64,000 nucleotides of DNA from Escherichia coli (lineage in GTDB: Bacteria > Pseudomonadota > Gammaproteobacteria > Enterobacterales > Enterobacteriaceae), in the NCBI RefSeq assembly GCF_003018255.1, contig NZ_CP027440.1. One strand, written 5' to 3'. Positions 11,651 to 42,036 of the stretch are shown here, in pieces. The translations under genes and the position numbers were made by a program. Numbering within the stretch: position 1 is the stretch's first letter; each line of letters begins with the position of its first letter. The notes under the pieces were generated by a model, which saw only the letters and a list, made by a program, of their open reading frames with translations, did not search any database and was not told the origin of the DNA.

Positions 11651-12418
11651 TTAACCATGACGCCGAATCGGTTGTTCAGAGTGCCCACGCTGCATCACCC
11701 GTTGCAAAACTTCCGCTTCCAGCTCCGCTAATCGCACCGACCCTAACCGGCGCGGACGGGGGATATCCACCGTCAAATCCAGACCAATTTTTCCCTCTTC
11801 AATTAACAATACCCGGTCAGCCATTGCTACCGCTTCGCTCACATCATGCGTCACCAACAGTACGGTAAAGCCGTGCTCCTGCCAAAGTGACACAATCAAA
11901 TCCTGCATCTCGAGCCGAGTCAGGGCGTCCAGCGCCCCGAGCGGTTCATCAAGCAATAATAAACCCGGTCGATGAATTAACGCTCTTGCCAGCGCCACAC
12001 GCTGTTTCTGCCCGCCAGAAAGTGCGGCAGGCCATTCCCCTGCGCGGTTCTCCAGTCCTACTGCAGCCAACGCCCGACGCGCGGCATCGCGCCACTGGCC
12101 TTTAAGGCCTAACCCAACGTTATCAATCACCGATTTCCACGGTAGCAGACGCGCATCCTGAAACATCATTCGCGTGTCTTCCTGAATCTCAGCCAGCGGT
12201 GTGGTGCCCGCTAACACGTCGCCTGCGGTTGGCGTTTCCAGACCTGCCAGCAGGCGCAGCAGGGTACTTTTGCCACCACCGCTGCGGCCCACCACCGCCA
12301 CAAACTGACCTGCCGGAATATGTAAATCCAGTTGGTTCAGGACGATATTTTCCGCGTATTGTTTGCTTACTGCATTGAGCAACAATGGTGTGCCCTGGTT
12401 CAGACGAGCAGTATTCAT
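11651..12418 (-). CDS. ssuB: aliphatic sulfonate ABC transporter ATP-binding protein
   Basis: 255 aa; Walker [18 protein letters not shown] signature. Confidence 0.95.
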
Positions 12419-13217: not shown

Positions 13218-14363
13218 TTAGCTTTGCGCGACGTTACGGGGGATAAAATCATTTGCCACCGCTTCGCCTTGCGGATTCAGCGGCTGCGGCTGGGGAATTT
13301 CCGGGATGGCGACATCCAGATGCGGGAACAGCAACTCGCCAACCCGATACGCTTCTTCCAGATGCGGGTAGCCCGAAAGCACAAAGCTGTCGATGCCAAG
13401 CGCGGCGTATTCGTTGATTCGCGCAGCGACCGTCGGACCATCGCCCACCAGTGCCGTCCCGGCACCGCCGCGCACTAAGCCAACGCCCGCCCATAAATTG
13501 GGGCTGATCTCCAGATTGTCGCGCTTGCCGTTATGTAGCGCCGCCATTCGCTGTTGTCCTACGGAATCCGTCCGGGCGAATGCGGCTTGTGCTTTGGCGA
13601 TAGTCTCATCATCAAGATGCGAGATTAACCGCTCGGCGGCCTGCCACGCTTCGTCGTTGGTTTCACGAACAATCACATGCAGACGAATACCGAAACGAAT
13701 TTTGCGTCCATGCGCGGCAGCTTTCGCCCGCACTTGTTCGATTTTCTCTTTAACCAGTTCCGGCGGTTCGCCCCAGGTGAGGTAGAGATCAACTTGTTCT
13801 GCCGCCAGCTCCTGGGCGACATCTGACGATCCGCCAAAGTAAAGCGGAGGATACGGCTGTTGAATCGGCGGGAAGAGCAGTTTGGCTCCGCGCACATGAA
13901 TATGTTTACCGTTGAAATTGACGGTTTCCCCCAGCAATAAGCGCCGCCAGACCTGGGTAAATTCCGCCGAGGCTTCGTAGCGCTCGCTATGATCAAGGAA
14001 CACGCCGTCGCCTGCCAGCTCTTGTGGATCGCTGCCTGTGACCAGATTAAACAACGCACGACCATTCGAGAGACGGTCAAGCGTGGCGGCCTGGCGGGCG
14101 GCAACGGTAGGTGAGGTTACGCTGGGACGCAGGGCGACAAGAAACTTCAGCCGTTGCGTCACCGGGATCATCGACGCGGCAACCAGCCACGCATCTTCAC
14201 ACGATCGTCCTGTTGGGATCAGCACACCGGTATAACCCAGACGATCCGCCGCTTGCGCAATTTGTTGCAGATAACCGTGATCAACCGGACGTGAACCTTC
14301 TTCCGTTCCCAGATAGTGCCCGTCACCATGGGTCGGTAAAAACCAGAACATATTCAGACTCAT
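13218..14363 (-). CDS. ssuD: FMNH2-dependent alkanesulfonate monooxygenase
   Basis: 381 aa; [19 protein letters not shown] luciferase-like N-terminus. Confidence 0.95.
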
Positions 14364-16123: not shown

Positions 16124-17134
16124 ATGTACTACCCCTTCGTTCGTAAAGCCCTTTTCCAGCTCGATCCAGAGCGCGCTCATGAGTTTACTTTTCAGCAATT
16201 ACGCCGTATTACCGGAACGCCGTTTGAAGCACTGGTGCGGCAGAAAGTGCCTGCGAAACCTGTTAACTGCATGGGCCTGACGTTTAAAAATCCGCTTGGT
16301 CTGGCAGCCGGTCTTGATAAAGACGGGGAGTGCATTGACGCGTTAGGCGCGATGGGATTTGGATCGATCGAGATCGGTACCGTCACGCCACGTCCCCAGC
16401 CAGGTAATGACAAGCCGCGTCTCTTTCGTCTGGTAGATGCCGAAGGTTTGATCAACCGTATGGGCTTTAATAATCTTGGCGTTGATAACCTCGTAGAGAA
16501 CGTAAAAAAAGCCCATTATGACGGCGTTCTGGGTATTAACATCGGCAAAAATAAAGATACGCCGGTGGAGCAGGGTAAAGATGACTATCTGATTTGTATG
16601 GAAAAAATCTATGCCTATGCGGGATATATCGCCATCAATATTTCATCGCCAAATACCCCAGGATTACGCACACTGCAATATGGCGAAGCGCTGGATGATC
16701 TCTTAACCGCGATTAAAAATAAGCAAAATGATTTGCAAGCGATGCACCATAAATATGTGCCGATCGCAGTGAAGATCGCGCCGGATCTTTCTGAAGAAGA
16801 ATTGATCCAGGTTGCCGATAGTTTAGTTCGCCATAATATTGATGGCGTGATTGCAACCAATACCACGCTCGATCGTTCTCTGGTTCAGGGAATGAAAAAT
16901 TGTGATCAAACCGGTGGCTTAAGTGGTCGTCCGCTTCAGTTAAAAAGCACAGAAATTATTCGCCGCTTGTCACAGGAATTAAACGGTCGCTTACCGATCA
17001 TCGGTGTTGGCGGCATTGATTCGGTTATCGCTGCGCGTGAAAAGATTGCTGCGGGGGCCTCACTGGTGCAAATTTATTCTGGTTTTATTTTTAAAGGTCC
17101 GCCGCTGATTAAAGAAATCGTTACCCATATCTAA
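16124..17134 (+). CDS. pyrD: dihydroorotate dehydrogenase (quinone)
   Basis: ORF track 16097..17134; start at ATG 16124 giving [21 protein letters not shown]. Confidence 0.95.
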
Positions 17135-17166
17135 TTATTTCTTCGAATTCCTCTTTATAAGATAAT

Positions 17167-17196
17167 CAGGGCTTTATTTTAAGCCCTGGTTGTTTT
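17167..17196 (+). terminator. rho-independent terminator of pyrD
   Basis: stem cagggctt-tatttt-aagccctg followed by ttgtttt. Confidence 0.7.
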
Positions 17197-17307
17197 ATAT
17201 TCATCGCTGTTGCTTATTTAGACATTTTGTACTTTTATTGTTGAGGTTATTAAGCGAAGCGACAATGGATTGTGTTGCTGCGGTTTTATAGGGTAGGGGA
17301 GAGGCAG

Positions 17308-17850
17308 ATGCGAATTAAACCAGACGATAACTGGCGTTGGTATTACGATGAAGAGCACGATCGAATGATGCTCGATTTAGCCAATGGTATGCTATTTCGC
17401 TCACGTTTTGCGCGCAAAATGTTGACTCCAGATGCCTTTTCTCCCGCAGGCTTTTGCGTTGACGACGCCGCGCTCTATTTCTCATTTGAAGAAAAATGCC
17501 GCGATTTTAATTTATCTAAAGAACAAAAAGCCGAACTGGTGCTTAATGCGCTGGTAGCAATTCGTTATCTCAAACCGCAAATGCCGAAAAGCTGGCATTT
17601 TGTTTCCCATGGTGAAATGTGGGTGCCCATGCCGGGCGATGCGGCCTGCGTTTGGTTGAGCGACACTCACGAGCAAGTCAATTTGCTGGTCGTTGAATCT
17701 GGCGAAAATGCCGCACTATGCCTGCTGGCACAACCCTGCGTTGTTATTGCGGGTCGCGCGATGCAGCTGGGCGACGCCATCAAAATCATGAACGACAGGC
17801 TGAAACCGCAGGTTAATGTTGACAGCTTCAACCTCGAACAGGCAGTCTAA
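17308..17850 (+). CDS. zapC: cell division protein ZapC (YcbW)
   Basis: ORF track 17272..17850; start at ATG 17308 giving [24 protein letters not shown]. Confidence 0.9.
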
Positions 17851-18956
17851 CGCGTCAGCTTAAGCGCAGTCTTCGGTACACAGCTACAGCAAAGAATGGT
17901 GCCATCATCGCCCATTGCTGATTTTTTCAGCGGCGTGACTTCGCCTTCTAAAAGCTGAACACGGCAACTTCCACAAATGCCCGCGCGGCAAGAATAAGGG
18001 ATACGAATTCCCTGATTTTCTAATTGCTCCAGCAACACCTGCTGGTTATTTCCACGAAATGCCTGTCCCTGCCAGTCAATATCTACATTTGCGTCCGGTT
18101 GTTGCGTGATGTTGACGGTATCATCAGCGGCGGCTGCGCCGTAAATTTTAGCCGGAGCCGTTGCCAGAACTTCCACCTCATCGCCAACGCGAATTACGCC
18201 GCTATTACGGGCAATTAAATTCTGACCAAAATCGACATCGCCGTTATCCTGGGCAGTGCGGAAAGATTGCAATGTTTTTAATGGTTCGCCTGCCGGATGT
18301 TTTTGCCCTTTTTCTGGACTGACGGTGGTGAAAATACAGCGGCTACAAGGTTTAACCACATCAAACACCACATCACCAATGCGAATCACTTTCCAGCTAT
18401 CTTCTTCCCAGGCTGACGCGCCGGAAACCACCAGATTGGGGCGGAATTGCTCCATTTTTACACTGGCCGGACAACGTTGTTGGAGATCACGTAACGAGGC
18501 TTCGTTAGCAAGAAGGTAAGGATAGCCATCAGCAAATGACAGGGGTACAGTGTTGTGGCGTTTCACGCGCCGCGTCATTTGTGGCCCCACCCAGCGCAAC
18601 TGCACTTCGCGGGAGAAAAATCCACTTAGCCATTTGTTGATCGCGTCTGGTGCAATTCGCGCGGTAAAATGTGTGCCCCAAACTTCGGTTGGTGCGTCTT
18701 GTGTGGCGAAATCAGCAAAACGAACATATGCGCTACTGCCATCTGGTGCGGTGAGATGCAAGCCATCATGCACAGGTGAAGGAGTAAACCGTACCATCTG
18801 GGGAAACTGGCGAGCGGTAATAAACGTACCGTCAGGTTCCGTGATCATAAAGATGCGATCGAAGGCCAGACCACTGACATCTGCCAGGGCATGTGTAAGA
18901 CCAATGCCGCGCATCGATTTAACAGGATGAATAAAAAGCCGGGTTAATGTCGCCAC
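17847..18956 (-). CDS. ycbX: MOSC-domain 2Fe-2S protein YcbX
   Basis: 369 aa; C-terminal ferredoxin-like cysteine cluster (CRAGICGSC). Confidence 0.9.
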
Positions 18957-19199
18957 GGTGCGGTCCTCAAATGAAAATAAGCCCTCAACTTTATGACATG
19001 ACGCGCTTATTAGCTATAATGCGCAACAATTTTCTTAGCGCCTGTCCCATTAGGCTATTTTATTTGTCAGTTTGGCCCAGGGAAGTGCTCGAAATCCTCA
19101 CGTACTTGTGTACGCTCCGGTTTCTCCGCGCTGTCCATGTCCAGACTGACTGCAACAATTACGCCTACTGCGGTAGGCTCTTAGAGTAAAAGTGACGAT

Positions 19200-21308
19200 A
19201 TGAATTCTCTGTTTGCCAGTACGGCCCGTGGGCTGGAAGAGCTGTTAAAAACTGAACTGGAAAACCTGGGGGCCGTTGAATGCCAGGTGGTTCAGGGTGG
19301 GGTCCATTTCAAGGGCGACACACGGCTTGTTTACCAGAGCCTGATGTGGAGCCGCCTGGCCTCGCGTATTATGTTGCCGCTGGGCGAGTGTAAGGTTTAC
19401 AGCGATTTAGACCTCTATCTCGGTGTTCAGGCGATCAACTGGACAGAGATGTTTAATCCTGGCGCGACCTTCGCTGTCCACTTCAGTGGTTTGAATGACA
19501 CCATCCGCAACAGTCAGTACGGCGCGATGAAAGTGAAAGACGCGATCGTCGATGCTTTCACGCGGAAAAATCTGCCGCGTCCAAATGTTGATCGCGATGC
19601 GCCGGATATCCGCGTTAACGTCTGGCTGCATAAAGAAACCGCCAGTATTGCCCTTGATCTCAGTGGTGATGGTTTACATCTGCGTGGCTATCGCGATCGT
19701 GCTGGTATTGCGCCGATCAAAGAAACCCTGGCAGCCGCGATTGTTATGCGATCCGGCTGGCAGCCAGGAACACCGCTGCTCGATCCGATGTGTGGTTCCG
19801 GTACGTTGTTGATTGAAGCGGCGATGCTGGCGACCGATCGCGCACCAGGCTTGCACCGTGGACGTTGGGGCTTTAGCGGCTGGGCACAGCATGATGAAGC
19901 CATCTGGCAGGAAGTGAAAGCAGAAGCGCAAACCCGCGCCCGTAAAGGCCTGGCTGAGTATAGCTCTCATTTTTACGGTTCGGACAGCGACGCACGGGTG
20001 ATTCAACGTGCGCGCACTAACGCCCGTCTTGCGGGGATTGGTGAACTGATCACCTTTGAAGTGAAAGATGTCGCGCAACTGACCAATCCGCTGCCGAAAG
20101 GGCCGTACGGTACAGTGTTGAGCAACCCGCCATACGGTGAACGTCTGGACAGCGAACCGGCGCTGATTGCGCTGCATAGTCTGCTGGGCCGAATCATGAA
20201 AAACCAGTTCAGCGGCTGGAATCTCTCTTTATTCAGTGCCTCGCCGGATCTGTTAAGTTGCCTGCAGTTGCGTGCAGACAAACAGTACAAAGCGAAAAAC
20301 GGTCCATTAGACTGCGTGCAGAAAAATTACCACGTTGCCGAAAGCACACCAGACAGCAAACCGGTAATGGCAGCGGAAGACTACGCCAACCGTCTGCGTA
20401 AGAACCTCAAAAAATTCGAGAAGTGGGCGCGTCAGGAAGGCATTGAATGCTACCGCCTGTACGACGCCGATCTACCGGAATACAACGTTGCAGTTGACCG
20501 CTACGCCGATTGGGTGGTGGTGCAGGAGTATGCGCCGCCAAAAACTATTGATGCGCACAAAGCGCGTCAGCGTCTGTTCGATATTATCGCTGCAACCATT
20601 TCGGTATTGGGGATTGCGCCAAACAAACTGGTGCTGAAAACCCGTGAACGCCAGAAGGGCAAAAATCAGTACCAGAAACTGGGCGAGAAGGGCGAGTTTC
20701 TCGAAGTTACCGAATATAACGCTCACTTGTGGGTGAACCTGACGGATTACCTCGATACCGGTCTGTTCCTCGATCACCGTATCGCCCGTCGTATGCTCGG
20801 TCAGATGAGCAAAGGCAAAGATTTCCTCAACCTGTTCTCTTATACCGGCAGCGCCACCGTGCACGCGGGATTAGGCGGTGCACGCAGCACTACCACCGTG
20901 GATATGTCGCGTACTTATCTGGAGTGGGCAGAACGCAACCTGCGTCTGAATGGCCTAACCGGGCGTGCGCATCGCCTGATTCAGGCCGATTGCCTGGCGT
21001 GGCTGCGTGAGGCAAATGAACAGTTCGATCTGATTTTTATCGATCCGCCAACCTTCTCTAACTCAAAACGAATGGAAGATGCGTTTGATGTTCAGCGCGA
21101 TCATCTGGCGCTGATGAAAGATTTGAAACGTCTGCTGCGTGCTGGTGGGACGATCATGTTCTCGAACAACAAACGTGGCTTCCGTATGGATCTTGACGGA
21201 CTGGCAAAACTGGGACTGAAAGCACAAGAAATTACGCAAAAAACGCTCTCCCAGGATTTCGCCCGTAACCGCCAGATCCACAACTGCTGGCTGATTACCG
21301 CAGCCTGA
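19200..21308 (+). CDS. rlmL: bifunctional 23S rRNA methyltransferase RlmKL (YcbY)
   Basis: 702 aa; [21 protein letters not shown]-terminus, SAM-MTase motifs. Confidence 0.93.
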
Positions 21309-24614: not shown

Positions 24615-26255
24615 ATGGAATCTAATAATGGGGAAGCCAAAATCCAGAAAGTGAAGAACTGGTCTCCCGTGTGGATATTTCCTATCGTCACGGCGCTCAT
24701 TGGGGCCTGGGTTCTTTTTTATCATTACAGCCATCAGGGGCCGGAAGTGACCCTGATCACCGCGAATGCGGAAGGAATAGAAGGTGGTAAAACCACCATT
24801 AAAAGCCGTAGCGTTGACGTCGGCGTGGTTGAAAGCGCCACACTGGCTGATGATTTGACGCACGTTGAAATCAAAGCGCGGCTGAATTCCGGTATGGAAA
24901 AATTGCTGCATAAAGATACCGTCTTTTGGGTGGTGAAACCGCAGATTGGTCGAGAAGGGATTAGCGGCCTGGGAACGCTGCTGTCTGGTGTTTATATCGA
25001 ACTGCAGCCAGGCGCGAAAGGCAGCAAAATGGATAAATACGATTTGCTGGACTCACCACCGTTGGCCCCGCCTGATGCGAAAGGTATCCGTGTGATTCTC
25101 GATAGCAAAAAAGCCGGGCAGCTCTCGCCAGGAGATCCCGTGCTGTTCCGTGGCTATCGGGTAGGTTCGGTTGAAACCAGCACCTTTGATACGCAAAAAC
25201 GCAATATCAGCTATCAACTGTTCATCAATGCACCTTATGACCGACTGGTGACCAGCAATGTTCGCTTCTGGAAAGATAGTGGCATTGCGGTTGATTTGAC
25301 GTCAGCGGGAATGCGTGTGGAGATGGGTTCATTGACAACGCTGCTTAGTGGCGGTGTCAGCTTTGATGTGCCGGAAGGTCTGGATTTAGGGCAGCCAGTG
25401 GCACCGAAAACAGCTTTCGTTTTGTATGATGATCAGAAGAGCATTCAGGATTCGTTGTACACCGATCACATTGATTATCTGATGTTCTTTAAAGATTCGG
25501 TACGCGGTCTGCAACCGGGAGCTCCGGTAGAATTCCGGGGTATTCGCCTGGGTACCGTAAGCAAAGTGCCATTCTTTGCGCCGAATATGCGTCAGACATT
25601 TAACGATGATTACCGTATTCCGGTACTGATTCGTATCGAGCCAGAGCGGCTGAAAATGCAGCTTGGCGAAAATGCGGATGTTGTTGAGCACCTTGGCGAA
25701 TTGTTGAAACGTGGTTTACGCGGATCGCTGAAAACCGGAAACCTGGTCACTGGCGCACTGTATGTTGATCTCGATTTCTATCCAAATACGCCTGCAATAA
25801 CCGGTATTCGTGAATTTAATGGTTATCAGATTATCCCGACCGTTAGCGGCGGTCTGGCGCAAATCCAGCAACGACTGATGGAAGCGTTGGATAAGATCAA
25901 CAAACTGCCATTGAATCCGATGATTGAACAGGCAACCAGTACGCTTTCTGAAAGTCAGCGCACAATGAAAAACCTGCAAACGACGCTGGATAGCATGAAC
26001 AAGATCCTCGCCAGCCAGTCGATGCAGCAGCTGCCGACGGATATGCAGTCAACGTTGCGTGAATTGAATCGCAGCATGCAGGGCTTCCAGCCTGGCTCCG
26101 CAGCCTACAACAAGATGGTGGCGGATATGCAGCGCCTTGATCAGGTGTTGCGAGAACTGCAACCGGTGCTGAAAACGCTCAATGAGAAGAGTAACGCGCT
26201 GGTATTTGAAGCGAAGGACAAAAAAGATCCAGAGCCGAAGAGGGCGAAACAATGA
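24615..26255 (+). CDS. pqiB: MCE-domain envelope-spanning protein PqiB
   Basis: ORF track 24555..26255; start at ATG 24615 giving MESNNGEAKIQKVKNWSPVW. Confidence 0.93.
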   Translation: MESNNGEAKIQKVKNWSPVWIFPIVTALIGAWVLFYHYSHQGPEVTLITANAEGIEGGKTTIKSRSVDVGVVESATLADDLTHVEIKARLNSGMEKLLHKDTVFWVVKPQIGREGISGLGTLLSGVYIELQPGAKGSKMDKYDLLDSPPLAPPDAKGIRVILDSKKAGQLSPGDPVLFRGYRVGSVETSTFDTQKRNISYQLFINAPYDRLVTSNVRFWKDSGIAVDLTSAGMRVEMGSLTTLLSGGVSFDVPEGLDLGQPVAPKTAFVLYDDQKSIQDSLYTDHIDYLMFFKDSVRGLQPGAPVEFRGIRLGTVSKVPFFAPNMRQTFNDDYRIPVLIRIEPERLKMQLGENADVVEHLGELLKRGLRGSLKTGNLVTGALYVDLDFYPNTPAITGIREFNGYQIIPTVSGGLAQIQQRLMEALDKINKLPLNPMIEQATSTLSESQRTMKNLQTTLDSMNKILASQSMQQLPTDMQSTLRELNRSMQGFQPGSAAYNKMVADMQRLDQVLRELQPVLKTLNEKSNALVFEAKDKKDPEPKRAKQ

Positions 26256-27249: not shown

Positions 27250-27287
27250 TAAAAAGAAACCTCCGCATTGCGGAGGTTTCGCCTTTT
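27250..27287. terminator. bidirectional terminator between rmf and fabA
   Basis: stem aaacctccgc-attg-cggaggtttc with A-run 5' and T-run 3'. Confidence 0.75.
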
Positions 27288-32504: not shown

Positions 32505-33134
32505 ATGAAAAGCCTCTCCTATAAGCGGATCTATAAATCACAAGAATACCTGGCAACGTTGGGCACAATTGAATACCGATCATTGTTTGGTAGTTACAGC
32601 CTGACCGTTGACGACACGGTGTTTGCGATGGTTTCTGATGGTGAGTTGTATCTTCGGGCTTGTGAGCAAAGTGCACAGTACTGTGTAAAACATCCGCCTG
32701 TCTGGCTGACATATAAAAAGTGTGGCCGATCCGTTACCCTCAATTACTATCGGGTTGATGAAAGTCTATGGCGAAATCAACTGAAGCTGGTGCGTCTGTC
32801 GAAATATTCTCTCGATGCAGCGCTGAAAGAGAAAAGCACGCGCAATACCCGGGAAAGACTGAAAGATTTGCCCAATATGTCTTTTCATCTGGAAGCGATT
32901 CTCGGGGAGGTGGGGATTAAGGATGTACGGGCGTTACGTATACTTGGGGCAAAAATGTGTTGGTTGCGACTGCGGCAGCAAAACAGTCTGGTGACAGAAA
33001 AGATTCTGTTTATGCTTGAAGGGGCCATTATCGGTATTCATGAAGCTGCGCTCCCGGTGGCACGCCGCCAGGAGCTTGCAGAATGGGCTGACTCTCTTAC
33101 GCCAAAACAGGAGTTTCCTGCGGAACTTGAGTAA
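32505..33134 (+). CDS. sxy: competence regulator Sxy/TfoX
   Basis: 209 aa; MKSLSYKRIYKSQEYLATLGTIEYRSLFGSYSL. Confidence 0.92.
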   Translation: MKSLSYKRIYKSQEYLATLGTIEYRSLFGSYSLTVDDTVFAMVSDGELYLRACEQSAQYCVKHPPVWLTYKKCGRSVTLNYYRVDESLWRNQLKLVRLSKYSLDAALKEKSTRNTRERLKDLPNMSFHLEAILGEVGIKDVRALRILGAKMCWLRLRQQNSLVTEKILFMLEGAIIGIHEAALPVARRQELAEWADSLTPKQEFPAELE

Positions 33135-35250
33135 TCTGGCGTTGCAGACGACCAATCTCTGGCAGTAATGCAATCAATAACCCAACTTGTTGTACGACCA
33201 GAGGTTCTTTGCTGTCTGCCCGTGGTTCAAGTTGCTGCATCCGCTGTTTCAGGCCAGCTAATGCCTGATTGACGCGTTCTTCATCAGCAGGTTGATGATG
33301 TAGCGCGTCATCAACATAGCAAACTGCGTCATCAAGAAACGCCAGAATTTCAGGATTAGTTAACTGCTCCCGGTGAGCACCGAGGGCTGAGATATAGCTG
33401 GTAAACGTATGGTTAAGGCACAGCAACCGAAACGCGGCTTCGCGAATTTGCGGGGTAACGTTCGGTTCGCTGGACATATTTGATACCACCGACGCCAGTT
33501 CAGCATCACGGTTGTGTGCATCGCGGCGGGCAATACGATACGCCAGACGGTTATCACGCCCCTGATGGTATTGTTCCAGTATGGCATCGAGATACCGGCA
33601 GTTGGCCTCTGTGGCGCGTTCGAGCATTCGCGGCAGATTGCGAAACTTCCAGTCAGGCCAGATGTAGCTCACTGCCGCCCACGCAATGGCACAACCAATC
33701 AGCGTATCGATTACGCGAGGTAACGCCACTTCAAAACCTTCACCCAGCAAGTTGAAACACAGTAGCACCAAAAGTGTGATGAACATCGTTGCATGGGCGT
33801 ATTGCACGTTACGGAAGGCAAAAAAGAGCACGCCGGTAATAACCAGCAGCACCAGCTGCCCTTCCAGTGATGGCACAAACCACAGCACAGGAATACCAAT
33901 TGCGATACCTACCAGCGTACCAATAATCCTTAACTTCAGGCGGTGGCGCGTGGCGTTATAGTTTGGCTGGCAGACAAACAAACTTGTCAGCAAGATCCAA
34001 TACCCGTGATGCATTCCGGTTATCTGAATGATGGCGTAGCCGAAGCACAACACCAGCGACATTCTTACCGCATGACGGAAGAGGGCGGATTCCGGCGTGA
34101 AGTGACGGCTAAGACGCAGCCAGATATCACTCAATCCGTGCGGGCTGTCATCAGCGAGCTCATTTTCGTCATTATTATGGGGCAGTGCCTGGGCCTGTTC
34201 TGATTCAATTGTTGCCAGTTGGGCATCAATGGCACGTAAATTGTTCAGTAAAAATCCCAGTGTTTTGAGTAAATCAGCAGGAGCGCCGTTATCGCGCATC
34301 CGCTCCAGCGCAGCATCAATATGCGTAAAAGCGCGCTCAAAATGCGGATCATGTTGATAAGGCTGACGCAGCAAAATACAGCGTGACAGTTGCTGGCACG
34401 CCTGGCCCTGCATCGACATCAGCCGCTGAAAACGGAACAGCACGTCGCTGTGGCGAAAATGTTCACGCAATGTTTGATATTGAATATGAGAAGAGCTGGC
34501 ACGCTCGTGAATATCCTGTGCGACAAAGTAATAATGCAGTGTGCGACGCGTTCCTCGTTGACCACGATCGCCACGTAAGCGGGTCAGCAGCGAGAGTTTC
34601 GTCTGATTCAATGTCGCCATCAGCTGACCGTTGGCGAGAGCCAAATCGTACAGCGGTGCCTGGCTTTCATCTTCAATATCAGGATCAAACATGCGCGACT
34701 TGAGCTCAAGATAACGCGCCAGTTGTTCATAGCAACGCGCCAGGTTGTCCTGCAGCGGGCGGACCGGGAACAGCAGATGACCAATAAGTGTCAGGACGTT
34801 GTACCAGACGGCACCGGCCAGAAGATACATCGGCTGCTGATACCAGTGCTCATACAGTGATGTTCCCAACATAGTGTAAATGGCGATCAGCAATGCACCG
34901 AAGGCAATTGTTGCATAGCGTTGACCCAGACCGCCGAGCAAAATGAAGCCGCTGGTAGAGAGCGTTAAGCCAATCGCAAATAGCCAGGGCCAGGGAAACA
35001 GCAATTCTACTGAGGCCGAGGCGATAAAAAAGCAGAACAGCGTAATGATGAGGTTACGCAAACGTCCCGCCAGTCGGTCATCGAGATCGGTCAGCGCCGC
35101 TGCCACCATCCCAAGCGTCAGCGGAATCGTCAGTTTTACATCACCCAGCCACCACGGAAACGCTGTGGTTCCACAAAGCGCAATAAAAATACGCGCGTAA
35201 TACAGCCAGGCGCTGTTCCAGGTATAGCGTTTGAGCAAAGGACTTAGCAT
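33097..35250 (-). CDS. yccS: inner membrane protein YccS (putative efflux/FUSC-like transporter)
   Basis: ORF track 33097..35259 (720 aa); two in-frame ATGs 9 nt apart, so start is ambiguous (35250 or 35259). Confidence 0.88.
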   Translation of the reverse strand: MLSPLLKRYTWNSAWLYYARIFIALCGTTAFPWWLGDVKLTIPLTLGMVAAALTDLDDRLAGRLRNLIITLFCFFIASASVELLFPWPWLFAIGLTLSTSGFILLGGLGQRYATIAFGALLIAIYTMLGTSLYEHWYQQPMYLLAGAVWYNVLTLIGHLLFPVRPLQDNLARCYEQLARYLELKSRMFDPDIEDESQAPLYDLALANGQLMATLNQTKLSLLTRLRGDRGQRGTRRTLHYYFVAQDIHERASSSHIQYQTLREHFRHSDVLFRFQRLMSMQGQACQQLSRCILLRQPYQHDPHFERAFTHIDAALERMRDNGAPADLLKTLGFLLNNLRAIDAQLATIESEQAQALPHNNDENELADDSPHGLSDIWLRLSRHFTPESALFRHAVRMSLVLCFGYAIIQITGMHHGYWILLTSLFVCQPNYNATRHRLKLRIIGTLVGIAIGIPVLWFVPSLEGQLVLLVITGVLFFAFRNVQYAHATMFITLLVLLCFNLLGEGFEVALPRVIDTLIGCAIAWAAVSYIWPDWKFRNLPRMLERATEANCRYLDAILEQYHQGRDNRLAYRIARRDAHNRDAELASVVSNMSSEPNVTPQIREAAFRLLCLNHTFTSYISALGAHREQLTNPEILAFLDDAVCYVDDALHHQPADEERVNQALAGLKQRMQQLEPRADSKEPLVVQQVGLLIALLPEIGRLQRQITQVPQETPVLA

Positions 35251-35268
35251 AAAGGCCATATTAGTGGA

Positions 35269-41431: not shown

Positions 41432-41710
41432 ATGTCGAAAGTCTGCATAATTGCCTGGGTTTACGGGCGAGTTCAGGGCGTAGGATTCCGCTACACCACG
41501 CAGTACGAAGCGAAAAAACTGGGACTAACCGGGTACGCCAAAAATCTTGACGATGGCAGCGTGGAAGTGGTTGCCTGCGGTGACGAAGGGCAGGTGGAAA
41601 AATTAATGCAGTGGTTAAAAAGTGGCGGCCCGCGTTCAGCGCGTGTGGAACGGGTGCTTAGCGAGCCGCATCATCCCTCCGGGGAGTTAACGGATTTTCG
41701 TATCCGTTAA
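41432..41710 (+). CDS. acyP: acylphosphatase (YccX)
   Basis: ORF track 41219..41710; start at ATG 41432 giving [27 protein letters not shown] (acylphosphatase signature); 92 aa. Confidence 0.9.
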
Positions 41711-42036
41711 ATGCATTTTACCGGTTTAGGCAGGCCAGCAATTTTGGTGGCTTGCTTTGCCGGACCTTTCGGGAACAGTCGGTACAGATAGCGGCTATTG
41801 CCTTTCTCTTCGCCAAATTTATTCGCCATCGCTTTTACCAGCATACGAATCGCCGGAGAAGTATTGAATTCCAGATAGAAATCACGCACAAAACGCACCA
41901 CTTCCCAGTGTTCTGGCGACAGCGCAATCCCTTCGTTCTCTGCAATCACCACCGCCAGTGGTTCACTCCACTGGCTGCTTTCTTTGAGATAGCCTTCGGT
42001 ATCCGTTTCTATCTCTTTACCTTCGAAGATCAGCAT
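41707..42036 (-). CDS. tusE: sulfurtransferase TusE (YccK)
   Basis: 109 aa; [18 protein letters not shown]; DsrC-like C-terminal ...PKPVKCI. Confidence 0.92.

Follow-up and report, generated by a model that had tools for sequence, protein, structure and literature searches.

Short overlaps between neighboring genes are more common in co-directional pairs, where they are usually tied to translational coupling. For convergent genes, the codon table sets the minimum overlap to 4 bp, since two stop codons do not fit into an overlap of 1, 2, 3 or 5 bp, and the only requirement for a 4-bp overlap is a pyrimidine ahead of TAA or TAG. Overlaps of this kind were described by Lillo and Krakauer (2007; PMC2174442) as the class [C/T]TA[A/G], here written YTAR, with CTAA, TTAA, CTAG, and TTAG as its tetramers. 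Their survey of 58 prokaryotes contained 1,890 convergent overlaps, with 672 of exactly 4 bp, the modal overlap length, and the other 1,218 at least 5 nt long; E. coli was represented by 58 convergent overlaps (PMC2174442).

Convergent genes have also been classified by their transcripts. The ExcludonFinder study (Sanmartin et al. 2025, PMC12288877) lists 165 convergent excludons of MG1655, zapC-ycbX, sxy-yccS, and yccX-tusE among them; its Table 1 names these three as pairs whose 3' transcription overlaps in 50% or more of 58 RNA-seq data sets. Taken as a class, excludon pairs have a higher synteny, and their single-cell expression ratios are more skewed (PMC12288877). Transcript ends have been mapped in K-12 with Term-seq by Adams et al. 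(2021, PMC7815308), who note that RNAs terminated by Rho are typically trimmed by 3'-to-5' exonucleases.

Here, we analyzed two convergent gene pairs, zapC/ycbX and acyP/tusE, in a 64,000-nucleotide stretch of an E. coli chromosome that extends from ldtD to yccM, referred to as the window. The zapC gene, coding for the cell division protein ZapC, is located on the plus strand at 17308-17850 and ends with the stop codon TAA at 17848-17850. The ycbX gene, coding for a MOSC/2Fe-2S protein, is located on the minus strand at 17847-18956 and ends with the stop codon TAG, read from CTA at 17847-17849. Both genes are present in the list of open reading frames and in the PGAP annotation, and their products match the Pfam domains ZapC_N and ZapC_C, and MOSC_N, MOSC and Fer2, respectively. 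The two stop codons are contained in the tetramer CTAA at 17847-17850, a 4-bp overlap of the coding sequences that is also present in K-12.

The second junction has the same layout. The acyP gene (also yccX), coding for an acylphosphatase, is located on the plus strand at 41432-41710 with the stop codon TAA at 41708-41710, and the tusE gene (also yccK), coding for a DsrC-family sulfur transfer protein, on the minus strand at 41707-42036 with the stop codon TAA, read from TTA at 41707-41709. Both stops lie in the tetramer TTAA at 41707-41710, again a 4-bp overlap of the coding sequences. The Acylphosphatase domain extends to residue 91 of the 92 residues in AcyP, and the DsrC domain to residue 109 of the 109 residues in TusE.

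The original prediction had placed both pairs tail to tail with 4-bp overlaps at the stop codons, and this arrangement was borne out, for zapC/ycbX by agreement between the reading frame coordinates, the PGAP annotation of a strain with 100% identity at 17200-19000, and the K-12 MG1655 annotation, and for acyP/tusE by the reading frame coordinates and the annotations, including that of K-12 MG1655. The idea that revised gene ends might remove the overlaps did not hold up. The ends of the four genes are not open to revision, because the stop codons fix the 3' ends, the Pfam domains extend to the C-termini, and the C-termini are conserved. The Pfam matches of all four products are above the curated cut-offs, and orthologs of the pair members with the same ends were found in 80 (tusE/acyP) and 8 (zapC/ycbX) other taxa, which identifies the frames as real genes. 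Both pairs are minimal convergent overlaps of the YTAR class, with real genes on opposite strands that overlap by exactly 4 bp in a permitted tetramer.

The segment at 17200-19000 has 100% identity to strain JNE23-011, and 5,425 of the 5,426 complete genomes of E. coli contain it. At the acyP/tusE junction, the allele of the window strain is a minority one, with about 20 differences to K-12 in the roughly 400 bp at 41600-41990, and the 60-mer across the junction was found as an exact match in 1,180 of the 5,426 E. coli genomes. Several of the differences are synonymous changes that make two hairpins perfect and lengthen a run of U residues (CACUUUUU versus CACUCUUU in K-12). The near-identical reference NZ_AP045067.1 shows a coordinate drift of 2 bp over approximately 19000-41430, such that acyP ends at 41708 in that sequence and at 41710 in the window, which implies a small indel somewhere between the zapC/ycbX and acyP/tusE sites.

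A YTAR tetramer ends 23 of the 112 long plus-strand frames in the window. When all stop-to-stop frames in the window with 80 or more codons were scanned, exactly two tail-to-tail 4-bp junctions were found, namely zapC/ycbX and acyP/tusE. The window contains 11 convergent gene pairs, of which three overlap. The third, which was absent from the original prediction, is formed by sxy (plus strand, 32505-33134) and yccS (minus strand, 33097-35259), with an overlap of 38 bp at 33097-33134. No Term-seq or Rho entry was found for sxy or yccS in the tables of Adams et al. (2021; PMC7815308). We also considered a local enrichment of convergent overlaps, with three overlapping pairs of 11 in the window compared to 58 overlaps genome-wide, and rejected it as at best marginal, since the comparison is post hoc and the genome-wide number derives from an old, restricted gene set. 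Two 4-bp pairs, or three overlapping pairs of 11, in 64 kb represent at most a mild local excess, and one that was judged afterwards. Same-strand overlaps of 4 bp between consecutive genes are numerous in the ssu, pqi, hya, and gfc operons, as exemplified by those at 12415-12418, 14360-14363, and 26252-26255.

To learn about the conservation of the tusE/acyP overlap, we scanned for TusE in one genome per species, which yielded 80 loci from the Enterobacteriaceae. Of the 80 species, 78 have an overlap of exactly 4 bp. The identity of AcyP is 60-80% outside Escherichia, and 97-98% at the two loci from E. coli and E. albertii. All four permitted tetramers are represented, with TTAA in 49, TTAG in 12, CTAA in 11, and CTAG in 8 species. 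No species departs from the central TA. In nearly all species, the outer bases differ only by silent transitions, the last codon being ATT or ATC in tusE and TAT or TAC in acyP. The two exceptions each contain a small insertion at the junction. In Cedecea colo (locus L060, around position 1828), a 7-bp tandem duplication, tatttag-tatttag, has doubled the stop tetramer and left a gap of 3 bp between tusE and acyP. In Entomohabitans (locus L058, around position 1828), an insertion of 4 nt has placed a TGA stop codon of acyP directly next to the TAA of tusE.

The zapC/ycbX overlap shows a similar pattern in a smaller sample. It is 4 bp long in seven of the eight genera sampled (Salmonella, Citrobacter, Klebsiella, Enterobacter, Cronobacter, Cedecea, and Buttiauxella), and Siccibacter, the eighth, has a gap of 4 bp and a zapC gene that ends with TGA. 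The C-terminal residues of YcbX are variable among the genera despite the retained overlap. Judging from this comparison of sequences, the arrangement appears to be older than the divergence of the Enterobacteriaceae.

Such conservation would be expected if the tetramer is mutationally locked. A change at either of the two central bases would destroy both stop codons at once, and the outer bases would be limited to transitions that are silent in both genes. To separate the two genes, an insertion would have to recreate a stop codon, which would be a rare event. The simplest reading is that the overlap is probably an accident that has been locked in by mutation. What is new here is the depth of the conservation, the pattern of a fixed central TA with free flanks, and the natural escape by duplication of the tetramer; the conservation as such is unsurprising.

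The original prediction had also held that termination takes place inside the partner gene. Because there is no intergenic DNA, each RNA must run into the partner gene, and for three of the four genes (zapC, ycbX, and tusE) termination inside the partner is supported by published data from K-12. All transcript data were obtained in K-12 and transferred to the window strain by alignment. Adams et al. (2021; PMC7815308) give each Term-seq 3' end as base 51 of a 61-nt string, a convention that we checked on sgrS. The 3' end of the zapC transcript at K-12 position 1006586 on the plus strand, classified as antisense to ycbX, lies 92 nt past the stop codon (the K-12 zapC gene ends at 1006494) (PMC7815308). 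It corresponds to position 17942 in the window, so that the 3' UTR of zapC covers 17851-17942 on the plus strand and is antisense to approximately the last 31 codons of ycbX. Downstream of zapC, the window differs from K-12 at three positions within 17855-17865, and the two sequences are identical starting at 17881, a part that contains the mapped 3' end. For tusE, the 3' end was mapped to 1030253 on the minus strand (1030252 on the tab for a second condition), which is 86 nt past the stop codon at 1030339 and antisense to yccX (PMC7815308). This end corresponds to 41621, and the 3' UTR of tusE covers 41621-41706 on the minus strand, antisense to approximately the last 29 codons of acyP. Across this 3' UTR, seven positions differ between the window and K-12, and four of the seven fall into the 61-nt stretch around the mapped end. 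For acyP, the published data contain no 3' end.

Treatment with bicyclomycin points to Rho at the zapC/ycbX junction. A Rho region at K-12 position 1006647 on the plus strand, antisense to ycbX, has a Rho score of 7.24 (p 1e-24) (PMC7815308), and corresponds to about 18003 in the window (approximate region 17997-18013, plus strand), downstream of zapC. Another at 1006040 on the minus strand, antisense to zapC and 451 nt past the stop codon of ycbX, has a Rho score of 4.34 (p 7e-8) (PMC7815308), and corresponds to about 17396 (approximate region 17386-17406, minus strand). The positions are approximate as the Rho score is calculated over windows of 800 nt. No bicyclomycin or Rho entry was found for tusE or acyP in Adams et al. 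(2021; PMC7815308). The ratio of C to G is 2.2-3.1 in 80-nt windows located 81-240 nt past the stop codons of zapC, acyP, and tusE, compared to a 95th percentile of 1.67 in the window, and past the stop codon of ycbX it reaches a maximum of 1.35, with no stretch above this percentile. A small palindromic hairpin (AGGGATACGAATTCCCT) at 17997-18013, followed by GATTTTCT, coincides with the reported peak of the Rho score at about 18003.

These data suggest how the transcripts may end. With no spacer between the genes, the 3' UTR of each mRNA is antisense to the end of the coding region of its partner. The ribosome would leave at the stop codon, and the RNA polymerase would carry on over RNA that is no longer translated. 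Rho would probably terminate transcription some 100-450 nt downstream, in line with the bicyclomycin sensitivity documented for zapC and ycbX, and exonucleases may then trim the RNA back to a fortuitous stable hairpin, which would place the 3' ends about 90 nt beyond the stop codon. Rho probably also acts on the transcripts of tusE and acyP. Overall, the two pairs are most probably ordinary minimal convergent overlaps that have been locked in, with termination that depends mainly on Rho and is followed by trimming.

Several hairpins are located in or near the overlaps. Downstream of zapC, a hairpin with the sequence CGCC..GCUGA-UUUUU-UCAGC-GGCG at 17905-17938 on the plus strand, inside codons of ycbX, is predicted to fold (z-scores -2.4 to -3.0) and ends 4 nt before the 3' end of zapC. 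It is not conserved in Salmonella, Klebsiella, and other genera, the hairpin at 17917-17931 being broken in Salmonella and others, and its run of six U residues is the antisense of the Lys-Lys codons of ycbX. The hairpin and this U-run were therefore rejected as an embedded terminator. Downstream of tusE, a GC-rich 9-bp stem formed by GCGGCUCGC and GCGGGCCGC with a 27-nt loop is located at 41625-41669 on the minus strand; it ends 4 nt before the 3' end of tusE and folds alike in the window and in K-12.

On the acyP side, a perfect 9-bp inverted repeat (TTAACGGAT/ATCCGTTAA) with the loop TTTCGT is located at 41687-41710 on the plus strand and ends exactly on the TTAA tetramer, followed by ATGCATTTTA, and is weakly terminator-like for acyP in this strain. 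The claim of the original prediction that there is no intergenic hairpin at either junction is trivially true in that there is no intergenic DNA, but at acyP/tusE in this strain it misses this 9-bp stem, which ends on the stop tetramer. The palindrome contains three GC pairs and is followed by the tail AUGCAUUUUA; there is no upstream A-tract, and the z-score of the fold is -1.7. In K-12 and E. albertii, the palindrome contains one mismatch, and genera other than Escherichia lack it; short-range inverted repeats of 9 nt or more occur 56 times in the window. We rejected it as a bidirectional terminator because of its weak fold, the missing A-tract, the mismatch in K-12 and E. albertii, its absence elsewhere, and its unexceptional standing among the 56 repeats. 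Another hairpin, with a GC-rich stem of 8 bp followed by UGCUUUCUUU, is located at 41954-41975 on the plus strand, 244 nt past the acyP stop codon and inside tusE (in the codons for QWSEPL). It has a folding energy of -16.1 kcal/mol and is a candidate terminator for acyP in this strain only. When the acyP-sense strand was folded, it was not kept in any of the other 79 of the 80 species, and no compensatory changes were found. As a conserved embedded terminator it was rejected, being mismatched already in K-12 and degraded across the 80 species. The K-12 mismatches in both acyP-side hairpins are synonymous differences.

Matches to a terminator-like consensus are about four times more frequent at 17000-19300 than expected, with 12 matches compared to 3.0 +/- 1.8 in shuffled sequences, and most of them are weak and located within ycbX or zapC on either strand. 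The z-scores of the embedded hairpins compared to shuffled sequences are modest, from -1.3 to -3.0. Neither conservation of a terminator hairpin nor compensatory change was found in related species for the hairpins at 41954-41975, 41687-41710, and 17917-17931. A hairpin at 17167-17188 (CAGGGCTTTATTTTAAGCCCTG), between pyrD and zapC, scores as terminator-like on the minus strand and could serve as a backstop for antisense readthrough from ycbX across zapC in addition to ending pyrD. At the rmf/fabA junction, a perfect 12-bp inverted repeat (GAAACCTCCGCA/TGCGGAGGTTTC) at 27256-27280 coincides with Term-seq ends on both strands (K-12 positions 1015897, minus strand, and 1015927, plus strand). This repeat is a textbook bidirectional intrinsic terminator and contrasts with the pairs that lack a spacer.

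The overlapping 3' UTRs are perfectly complementary to the mRNAs of the partner genes. If both genes are transcribed, these regions may pair and the duplex may be cut by RNase III, as in convergent excludons. Consistently, Table S3 of Huang et al. (2020) contains an RNase III-type 21-nt duplex, captured by p19 and recovered from both strands, at 1005760-1005783 in U00096.2, which corresponds to 17894-17916, and another one at 1029514-1029537 in U00096.2, which corresponds to 41660-41682. Both duplexes map inside the 3' UTR overlaps. As the genome contains thousands of p19 duplexes (about 1.5 per kb), with several in ycbX, one duplex per overlap of about 90 nt is modest evidence. A review of sRNA target mapping also notes that the yccX and tusE RNAs, which overlap tail to tail, were recovered together by MAPS with RyhB. 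Taken together, the published data (the excludon table, Term-seq, and the p19 duplexes) show that the transcripts of both pairs overlap at their 3' ends in vivo. A regulatory consequence of the overlap may follow from this complementarity.

The positions of the hairpins raise the alternative that the transcripts end by intrinsic termination at hairpins that also serve as codons of the partner gene, namely 17905-17938 for zapC, 41625-41669 for tusE, and 41687-41710 or 41954-41975 for acyP. The two mapped 3' ends are both located 4 nt after a hairpin, and non-canonical hairpin-dependent termination could produce such ends. The excess of consensus matches at 17000-19300 and the two acyP-side hairpins also speak for this alternative, as does the estimate that about 20% of the convergently overlapping genes in E. 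coli have predicted intrinsic terminators (Lillo and Krakauer, PMC2174442). In this strain, the tusE hairpin is followed by the tail CACUUUUUAACC with five U residues, and the two acyP-side hairpins are perfect, so that part of the termination in this strain may be intrinsic. However, a GC-rich hairpin with a U-tract, together with an A-tract if bidirectional, was not found at the mapped ends, where the tails in K-12, the strain in which they were mapped, are poor in U (UGACUUC and CACUCUUU). Readthrough downstream of zapC is bicyclomycin-dependent and 7-fold, the folds have only modest z-scores, and the hairpins are broken without compensation by synonymous changes in K-12 and in other genera, which makes intrinsic termination unlikely. 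Overlapping bidirectional terminators were reportedly found by Ju et al. in 2019 with SEnd-seq at convergent pairs in E. coli, and a model in which converging polymerases collide inside the overlap and the complexes dissociate owing to a hairpin there has been proposed from SEnd-seq and single-molecule data for hundreds of convergent pairs in E. coli with terminators that resemble neither the intrinsic nor the Rho-dependent type. The palindrome located exactly on the TTAA in this strain, which forms on both strands, would fit such a model. Yet the class is described as Rho-independent and zapC/ycbX is sensitive to bicyclomycin on both strands, and the 3' ends were mapped some 90 nt beyond the junction and share no common hairpin. 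The model best fits highly expressed pairs (Wang et al. 2022 preprint, 10.1101/2022.10.23.513370), and we regard collision-driven termination as highly improbable for the pairs studied here.

A different alternative concerns why the overlaps have been kept. The shared stop codons could have been retained by selection as excludons, if the antisense 3' UTRs make the expression of zapC and ycbX, and of acyP and tusE, mutually exclusive through RNase III or polymerase interference. Both pairs count among the listed excludons of E. coli, a class with higher synteny and skewed expression ratios (PMC12288877), the overlaps have been kept in 78 of 80 and seven of eight taxa, RNase III-type duplexes are present in both, and yccX and tusE RNAs co-purify. 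The double-stop constraint, however, fully accounts for the conservation with no need for a regulatory benefit. Furthermore, the partners lack an evident functional link (cell division and MOSC detoxification in one pair, acylphosphatase and tRNA thiolation in the other), the hairpins and U-tracts of the 3' UTRs are not conserved, and p19 data could not validate convergent excludons in the excludon paper itself (PMC12288877). No pair-specific reciprocal expression data were found in the literature for either pair. Selection of the pairs as excludons thus seems rather improbable, and that the near-invariance of the overlap reflects selection for obligatory antisense 3' UTRs, which would tune zapC against ycbX and acyP against tusE reciprocally, instead of lock-in, we consider very improbable. 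If selection did act in this way, the two loci would be conserved, minimal, spacer-free excludons in which the regulatory RNA is the coding sequence of the partner itself.

The analysis confirms the annotation and shows that the four genes lack terminators of their own in spacer DNA. The two pairs provide clean and deeply conserved cases of a YTAR tetramer that freezes the ends of genes, with both stop codons dependent on the same two central bases. They may serve as test cases for how a transcript ends where the downstream sequence is solely the antisense of another gene, and the existing Term-seq, bicyclomycin, and p19 data sets cover most of this question.

The arrangement is ordinary and already known, and both pairs have already been catalogued as convergent excludons. 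In geometry and sequence, they are the same as the class of Lillo and Krakauer (2007; PMC2174442), which has E. coli among its genomes. These authors also raised the consequence that the terminator must be placed in coding sequence (PMC2174442). There is no difference in structure to that class, and what is added here is the conservation per locus over 80 species, with variation confined to the outer bases. Both pairs, as well as sxy-yccS, are named members of the convergent excludons by the overlap of their transcripts (PMC12288877). The excludon concept implies reciprocal regulation, whereas what is documented for the pairs here is the transcript overlap alone. The overlapping bidirectional terminators (Wang et al. 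2022, 10.1101/2022.10.23.513370) are likewise found at convergent pairs with 3'-overlapping transcripts and hairpins in the overlaps. They are, however, intergenic and Rho-independent and contain one common hairpin, whereas the pairs described here have no intergenic DNA and 3' ends that are far apart, and at least one of them is sensitive to Rho. With the system in which Rho terminates untranslated and antisense RNA that is then trimmed (PMC7815308), the pairs share the bicyclomycin-sensitive regions antisense to ycbX and zapC. As in that system, the ends of zapC and tusE are located 4 nt after a hairpin and more than 50 nt past the stop codon, in RNA that is skewed toward C over G. The documented sensitivity to Rho is here confined to zapC and ycbX, and the trimming is what the position of the ends suggests.
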